Assembly: GCA_964016885.1 (NCBI GenBank)
Contig: OZ024755.1
Location: 35,154,001-35,218,000, forward strand
Length of the DNA stretch: 64,000 bases
Direction of reading: 5' to 3'
From: Eledone cirrhosa
Lineage: Eukaryota
The notes under the pieces were generated by a model, which was not told where the DNA came from, did not search any database, and worked only from the letters and a program-made list of their open reading frames with translations. Positions within the stretch are counted from its first letter, which is position 1; each line of letters opens with the position of its first letter. Positions 58,748-59,865 of this stretch are shown here, piece after piece. The position numbers and the translations under genes are program-made.

Positions 58748-58778
<31 letters not shown>

Positions 58779-59071
58779 ATTGAAACAAAATGAAAACGAA
58801 ATTTCATTTCTCACTCTTAGTATGGCACTTACTTAAATGTAAGTATGCATGTATACGTACATACATATATGTATACAGACGTACAGTAGCATGCACACAT
58901 ATATATACATATATACATACATATGCATACAGGTACACATACATATATGCACGTATCAGTTTAGCGGCGCTAACGTCGCTTTGTTCGTTTGTAAACAAAC
59001 TGAACAGCCTGAATTTATGCCATACGGTGTTAAGGCAACCACGTCACCTTTTTGTTCAACACTGACACAGG

Positions 59072-59116
59072 AACGATGTACTAGTTTCAAGCTTGTTAGC
59101 TATCATCAGCACCGTT
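59072..59116 (-). ncRNA. Minimal type I hammerhead ribozyme (unit 1)
   Basis: Minus strand: AACGGTG-CTGATGA-TAGCT AACA AGCTT-GAAA-C TA G-TA-CATCGTT. Confidence 0.8.
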
Positions 59117-59533
59117 TACCCATCTGCCAGATAGTTGAACGTTCGAAAGTATATACTTTCCTTATGAAAATTAACGGCTGAGCAGCCTAATTTGCATATT
59201 GAGTGAGTTAAATCGGTCAGGCATACCGAAAACGATAAATTGAAACAAAATGAAAACGAAATTTCATTTCTCACTCTTAGTATGGCACTTAAATGTAAGT
59301 ATGCATGTATACGTACATACATATATGTATACAGACGTACAGTAGCATGCACACATATATATATATATACATATATACATACATATGCATACAGGTACAC
59401 ATACATATATGCACGTATCAGTTTAGCGGCGCTAACGTCGCTTTGTTCGTTTGTAAACAAACTGAACAGCCTGAATTTATGCCATACGGTGTTAAGGCAA
59501 CCACGTCACCTTTTTGTTCAACACTGACACAGG

Positions 59534-59578
59534 AACGATGTACTAGTTTCAAGCTTGTTAGCTATCATCAGCACCGTT
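59534..59578 (-). ncRNA. Minimal type I hammerhead ribozyme (unit 2)
   Basis: Identical to 59072-59116, offset by 462 bp. Confidence 0.8.
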
Positions 59579-59825
59579 TACCCATCTGCCAGATAGTTGA
59601 ACGTTCGAAAGTATATACTTTCCTTATGAAAATTAACGGCTGAGCAGCCTAATTTGCATATTGAGTGAGTTAAATCGGTCAGGCATACCGAAAACGATAA
59701 ATTGGAACAAAATGAAAACGAAATACCTGTATGCATATGTATGTATATATGTATATATATATATATATGTGTGCATGCTACTGTACGTCTGTATACATAT
59801 ATGTATGTACGTATACATGCATACT

Positions 59826-59865
<40 letters not shown>

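Follow-up and report, generated by a model that had tools for sequence, protein, structure and literature searches.

The window, a 64,000-nucleotide stretch of the Eledone cirrhosa genome (GCA_964016885.1, contig OZ024755.1, positions 35,154,001 to 35,218,000, forward strand), carries a non-coding repeat inserted between two (TA)n tracts at 58753–58777 and 59831–59861, all positions being those of the window. On the minus strand there are two head-to-tail units, one of 460 bp (unit 1, 58778–59237) and one of 462 bp (unit 2, 59238–59699), joined to a 25-bp remnant of a third (59700–59724), which marks the 5' truncation point of this long arm. A short arm of the same repeat, covering about u303–u407, lies head-to-head with it in inverted orientation on the plus strand (59724–59830). 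Unit 2 defines the coordinate system used throughout, with u1–u462 running from 59699 down to 59238 on the minus strand. Unit 1 is the 3'-most of the long arm and terminates at a fixed 3' end, End 2, beside the left (TA)n, while the short arm terminates without a tail at another fixed end, End 1, beside the right (TA)n. The two units differ only by one 4-nt and one 6-nt indel, which agrees with the original prediction, made from the sequence alone, of two near-identical units of ~460 bp lying within (TA)n. A partial third unit and an inverted fragment had also been predicted and both are present, although the third unit amounts to only 25 bp and the fragment proves to be a second arm, which has a fixed 3' end of its own.

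The window units have no internal region and no LTR-type structure. Their ORFs, of 96–129 amino acids, run across an internal TA/CA/TG microsatellite hairpin (59293–59418, minus strand), which varies in length between units and has End 1 at its 3' edge, and the three unit ORFs that were scanned gave no Pfam match, in keeping with the claim that the unit holds no meaningful ORF. A conserved hairpin of the unit includes what we take to be an octamer-type motif (59652–59659, minus strand), which may have a structural role instead of acting in a promoter.

Each unit carries a type I hammerhead on the minus strand, and the two are identical (hammerhead 1, 59534–59578, core start 59571, H17 at 59541; hammerhead 2, 59072–59116, core start 59109, H17 at 59079). 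They are spaced by 462 nt and have a 7-bp stem I, a palindromic stem III and a GUA cut site, as first described, and stem I includes one G.U pair. Cleavage is predicted at 59541/59540 and 59079/59078, and from sequence and folds the cut-to-cut monomer, or would-be circle, would be 462 nt long (59079–59540, minus strand). Seven hammerhead cores were detected in the window against 0.13 per window-sized Markov shuffle, an expectation that falls to 0.02 when stem I has to be at least 7 bp (100 shuffles), while Rfam at its gathering threshold gave no match anywhere in the window.

The window also contains other hammerheads. A second family with a U.U-closed stem II and a longer stem III forms two short inverted arms in (TA)n at 57916–58052, and was also seen at three further loci (L041, L043 and L274). 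Additional families with a long stem II and a palindromic stem III lie at 58588–58752 (plus strand), 18780–19040 (minus strand) and 13350–13425 (minus strand), with the 13415-type hammerhead resembling the terminal repeat of a young Penelope family, PLE-D. Likewise, 65-nt inverted arms in (TA)n at 58155–58302 hold the apparent 3' half of another hammerhead, with similar pieces at L133 and L134.

The original prediction had described the hammerheads of the repeat as minimal, and this was not borne out. The hammerheads fit the canonical type I design of a conserved core, a helix I of 6 bp, a helix II of 4 bp and a short palindromic helix III, and a predicted extended helix I (59516–59602, minus strand, with the same in unit 1) continues through three more helices past an internal loop that opens with a conserved U. 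Of 80 sites, 79 have U as the first base of this loop and 78 have a loop II of the form RNnA, a 5' U of loop 1 and an RNnA loop 2 being described as motifs of the loop 1–loop 2 contact (PMC2632901). Judged by its motifs, with the loop–loop contact itself as a prediction, the family ribozyme is a canonical, extended metazoan hammerhead and not the minimal form reported for Penelope elements (PMC4209133). Stem II of the window hammerheads is closed by a U.U mismatch, and the base of helix II is U.U in all 58 sites compared; the same closure is reported for HHR_Amex2 of the axolotl, a hammerhead with weak cleavage on its own and stronger cleavage as a dimer (PMC7229834).

Self-cleavage, use of the dimer and circularisation are predictions. 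The monomer folds with z = −7.1, mostly because of the microsatellite hairpin, and u1–281 without that hairpin gives z = −2.2. A dimer-constrained fold of the natural tandem lies 11 kcal/mol above the minimum and a fold of two monomers 4.4 above, and therefore folding energies do not show the dimer. Among Xenopus retrozyme dimers, cleavage has been reported in one of nine, in one test (bioRxiv 10.64898/2026.07.22.740005), and in the anole Penelope system the hammerhead is reported to have cut only with protein and to have been dispensable for insertion (PMC11167929).

Copies were counted with sequence patterns in the 3.0-Gb host assembly. There are 8,278 exact copies of the 46-nt hammerhead and 12,361 matches to the hammerhead core pattern, while two anchors outside the ribozyme place the wider family at no fewer than 18,255 copies, with reversed controls giving 0 for all three; a metagenome scan for the hammerhead gave 0 matches. 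Direct unit-to-unit junctions number 14,175 genome-wide. Among the matches listed, 199 copies fall into 80 sites with 1–19 copies each, and 46 of these sites have at least two; the loci examined are the first matches listed, mostly from contig C1 and not random, and many were chosen by the intact-hammerhead pattern. Unit length across the family ranges from 430 to 540 bp, and older subfamilies, with identity down to about 83%, keep the same ORF-free junction. The proposal of a young family is therefore correct for the many exact hammerhead copies but incomplete, as these older subfamilies are also present.

Checks of copy number and tandem arrays had been suggested alongside the original prediction, and by pattern counts the repeat occurs as thousands of dispersed copies in arrays of 1–19 units. 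Multiple dispersed copies and complete type I hammerheads in consecutive short tandem units, the features by which non-LTR retrozymes are recognised, are both found here. Free tandems are abundant and no linked ORF was found, so the unit does not always abut a Penelope ORF, an arrangement that would have made it an ordinary pLTR remnant, and its description as retrozyme-like and non-autonomous is upheld. The repeat is a non-LTR retrozyme, a non-autonomous Penelope-type element, and constitutes a real, large and partly very young family.

We next consider how the ribozyme varies among copies. Across 58 sites, with one copy taken from each, the 11 core positions show no variant common to at least three sites, and variants at that level occur at N7, in loop II, in stem I and at nine of 37 outside positions. 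Among 100 matches picked by their flanks alone, 92 had all ten visible core positions intact when counted by eye. The stem I pair 126.162 is G.U in 56, U.G in 13, A-U in 7 and unpaired in 4 of 80 sites. Two-sided covariation was detected for one pair in one test and for four pairs in another, the latter equalled by 38 of 500 shuffles, and represents few events in copies related by descent. Four sequencing contig sets were compared, of which one, whole-genome-like, covered the family deeply, one shallowly and two essentially not at all; in the deeply covering set, variants at 5% or more within the hammerhead were confined to N7, loop II and stem I.

The layout of the insertions goes beyond the original prediction: they are two-armed, lie in (TA)n and pair one copy of each of two fixed 3' ends. 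The two arms are arranged head-to-head, and each terminates at End 1 (u407–410) or End 2 (u460–462), ~55 nt apart, before running into (TA)n. Genome-wide there are 5,580 matches to End 2 followed by (TA)6 and 2,932 to End 1 followed by (TA)5, counted on the forward strand only, as reverse-strand counts are inflated by overlapping matches. We collected 42 outward-facing pairs of arms, in 39 of which both ends could be typed beside (TA)n, and 38 of the 39 combined one End 1 with one End 2 (P = 7e-11 against 0.5), with one of the 38 spanning 7.8 kb and probably being two insertions. The sole exception sits inside a compound array, while the three pairs set aside comprise two of End 1 with an End 2-like end and one of End 2 with an End 2-like end. 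The window insertion obeys the same rule.

An inverted 5'-truncated copy at the 5' end, a tail at one end and a microsatellite or AT-rich target are all seen in this family, as in Penelope-type insertions. The layout described for Penelope-like elements comprises partial tandems, an inverted 5'-truncated copy, a 30–40-bp tail often at one end only, and microsatellite targets (PMC8557442), and for the anole element PAc the tail is reported to be the stretch between two reverse transcriptase (RT) start sites in vitro, with both target strands cut and extended (PMC11167929). The combination of End 1 with End 2 is thus the scar with a "tail at one end" already known from Penelope elements, corresponding to two RT start sites. 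Because these fixed ends are a Penelope scar, it is likely that a Penelope enzyme spreads the repeat, and mobilisation by an enzyme of this type is strongly supported, to a degree that we regard as highly probable.

Direct target-site duplications are masked by the (TA)n flanks, and in 2 of the 42 pairs a flank was found copied in inverted orientation on the far side of the insertion. In the window, the left flank at 58714–58752, formed by the 3' end of another hammerhead family, recurs as an inverted 39-nt copy at 59862–59900, and at L093 the copy is 27 nt long. The L093 copy is not a separate 3' end, because the copied piece is internal to an ORF. These inverted flank copies may be traces of a hairpin that opened where the target was cut.

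Autonomous elements encoding RT and a GIY-YIG endonuclease are abundant in the host genome, and about ten Penelope endonuclease types were sampled as possible partners. The unit is not the terminal repeat of any of them, each type inspected at its 3' end has a terminal sequence of its own, and no likeness at the 3' end to an autonomous partner was found among these types, a sample that a rare parent could escape. No recurrent ORF family was a fixed neighbour among 106 block edges, and no ORF with RT and GIY-YIG framed by the repeat, as in an autonomous Penelope element, was found at the loci examined. Two candidate parents were rejected: PLE-D, which is joined to the repeat at L021, has its own hammerhead repeat and shows the ORF–unit junction only there among 30 loci, while PLE-E lies beside the repeat at several loci, with (TA)n between the two, and has its own end. 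Of 50 GIY-YIG loci, three have the unit nearby, where it is parted by (TA)n (L269), on the opposite strand (L253) or 2.8 kb away (L268).

Several observations were made on these neighbouring elements. PLE-E likewise shows two 3' ends, about 90 nt apart, and at L110 and L091 it has a 712-amino-acid frame without a Pfam match and a hammerhead-like motif, with A at core position 4, ~1 kb past the ORF. In five chimeric insertions (L021, L097, L105, L106 and L110) an arm of the repeat runs straight into pieces of various Penelope families with no (TA)n in between, which points to template switching or to a loose choice of helper. One autonomous Penelope family (L262, L265 and L272) has a hammerhead of the same build, with the U.U closure and a 6-nt palindromic stem III, in unrelated sequence. 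In addition, between two insertions of the repeat at L031 there is a 1,045-amino-acid open frame (2531–5665, minus strand) of a LINE-type element, with endonuclease and RT recognised by eye.

The positions of 5' ends bear on the form of the template. At 40 loci chosen by their 3' ends, 2 of 43 5' ends lay within 3 nt of the cut site at u160 against 1.1 expected, and a genome-wide pattern search gave 8 matches for the cut site against 6 for a control position. This lack of a pile-up indicates that the enzyme reads through the cut site. A cut linear monomer is rejected as the template, since 5' ends would then gather at u160, which leaves a circle or a multimer that was not cut. Mismatches per 109 letters averaged 1.4 within sites against 7.5 between sites, and in 5 of the 11 arrays of at least three units, private SNPs were fixed across all units and did not occur in the other arrays examined; two of these arrays, L093 and L039, have them on both arms. 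Uniformity within sites together with these array-wide SNPs favours a one-unit bottleneck, that is, a circle, and a circular intermediate, as predicted from the genomic copies, is likely. Against a circle, some arrays are not uniform, with a period-3 pattern at L034, six plus two units of two types at L036 and an alternating insertion at L093, and these, together with the indels between the window units, fit a multimeric template, template switches or later duplication at the DNA level.

We favour, as the probable though far from assured explanation, a protein-free hammerhead repeat with thousands of two-armed insertions, which is copied in trans by a Penelope-type RT/endonuclease from an RNA predicted to self-cleave and circularise. 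Tandem copies would be transcribed from the minus strand, and the hammerhead would cut after GUA, probably with two copies pairing through their palindromic stem III, upon which a host ligase could close the 460-nt monomer into a circle. A Penelope protein, possibly as a dimer, would then nick both (TA)n strands and prime two cDNAs, one from each end, with End 2 lying ~55 nt further 3' than End 1. Each cDNA would run past the resealed cut site, completing a variable number of rounds, and the two 5' ends would be joined head-to-head. Counting against this explanation are the non-uniform arrays, the lack of a partner among the roughly ten types sampled, the anole hammerhead that was dispensable for insertion and the eight Xenopus dimers that did not cleave. 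A more specific form of this proposal, which we put forward tentatively and consider somewhat less probable than its negation, is that a genome-encoded circular ribozyme RNA undergoes rolling-circle reverse transcription by a Penelope dimer from two sites 55 nt apart on one circle. The strict rule of one End 1 and one End 2 and the array-wide private variants would be its genomic record, and the RNA would be known to its helper by structure, with no sequence in common.

The same Penelope-driven spread could instead start from a linear multimer that was transcribed from an existing array and left uncut, in which case no circle would be needed and the hammerhead would trim transcripts or aid folding. 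The lack of 5' ends at the cut site fits this equally well and the repeated unit patterns of the non-uniform arrays speak for it, as does the anole system, in which the main substrate was reported to be unprocessed RNA (PMC11167929). However, private SNPs fixed along entire arrays and on both arms call for a bottleneck of a single unit, linear copying with 5' truncation should yield shortened arrays although those seen here reach 19 units, and related animal repeats are reported to yield abundant circles (PMC7229834), so we consider a linear template rather unlikely.

We give still less credence to two explanations in which the repeat is not a mobile unit of this kind. If the unit were the ordinary pLTR of an ORF-bearing Penelope element missed in sampling, the loci would be truncated remnants; the tail, inverted arm and (TA)n preference are common to ORF-bearing elements, at the 3' end, truncated copies of autonomous families have a similar appearance, and a rare parent could go undetected. 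What makes this improbable is the number of direct unit–unit junctions set against 18,255 hammerhead-spanning copies, the block edges, none of which showed a recurrent ORF joined to 5' ends, and the retention of the ORF-free junction in subfamilies as diverged as those described above. Least probable of all, and to our minds very improbable, is a DNA-level element, such as a non-autonomous Helitron-like repeat or a dispersed satellite, with the hammerhead as a relic. The internal microsatellite, hairpins and tandem arrays resemble features of such elements, but fixed 3' ends that face outward on both strands, together with ragged 5' ends, are the pattern of reverse transcription, and the ribozyme core is conserved across subfamilies.

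The repeat is an element of a known kind, and its value lies in integration-level evidence for the enzyme class that moves animal retrozymes. A 2020 review states that retrozyme repeats give no clue to their helper (PMC7761336), and the earlier argument for Penelope elements was drawn from co-occurrence and likeness to pLTRs, as described for vertebrate retrozymes (bioRxiv 10.64898/2026.07.22.740005), while the Eledone family carries the scar in countable form. Its thousands of near-identical young copies also offer a small, defined template, with two predicted start sites, for the existing in vitro Penelope assay and for comparing circular with linear RNA directly, and it represents a large hammerhead family below Rfam thresholds. 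In the literature searched we found neither this family nor any retrozyme from a cephalopod, and no mention of the tail rule for retrozymes, although subscription papers, Repbase or supplements could hold one, and the main text of an octopus repeat annotation has no mention of hammerheads, ribozymes or retrozymes (PMC13282606).

Non-LTR retrozymes have been described from coral, mussel and axolotl in work that demonstrated circles and considered Penelope elements strong candidate helpers (PMC7229834). Compared with these, the Eledone unit is slightly longer (430–540 bp against 150–450 bp) and its (TA)n insertion as two inverted arms with a one-sided tail has no counterpart in the parts of that report available to us; the circles were demonstrated there, whereas the Eledone family is known from genome sequence, with cleavage and circles predicted. 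With the vertebrate retrozymes it shares the proposed relationship to Penelope elements and the two consecutive units with complete hammerheads by which they are defined (bioRxiv 10.64898/2026.07.22.740005), while the Eledone family is linked to them by its integration scar, and no related pLTR turned up among the types sampled. Non-autonomous Chlamys elements such as MRC1 of Chlamydomonas are likewise Penelope-type and inserted as multicopy head-to-tail arrays (PMC8557442); unlike the Eledone repeat, in which the hammerhead is conserved and no partner was found among the types sampled, they are reported to match an autonomous partner at the 3' end, and most Chlamys elements have no hammerhead. 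Although the Eledone repeat differs from EN+ Penelope-like elements in having no RT or GIY-YIG ORF, a tail of ~55 nt rather than 30–40, and a canonical rather than minimal hammerhead (PMC4209133), it has in common with them, including anole PAc, the partial tandems, the inverted 5'-truncated copy, the tail at one end, the microsatellite or AT-rich targets and the hammerhead itself (PMC8557442, PMC11167929).
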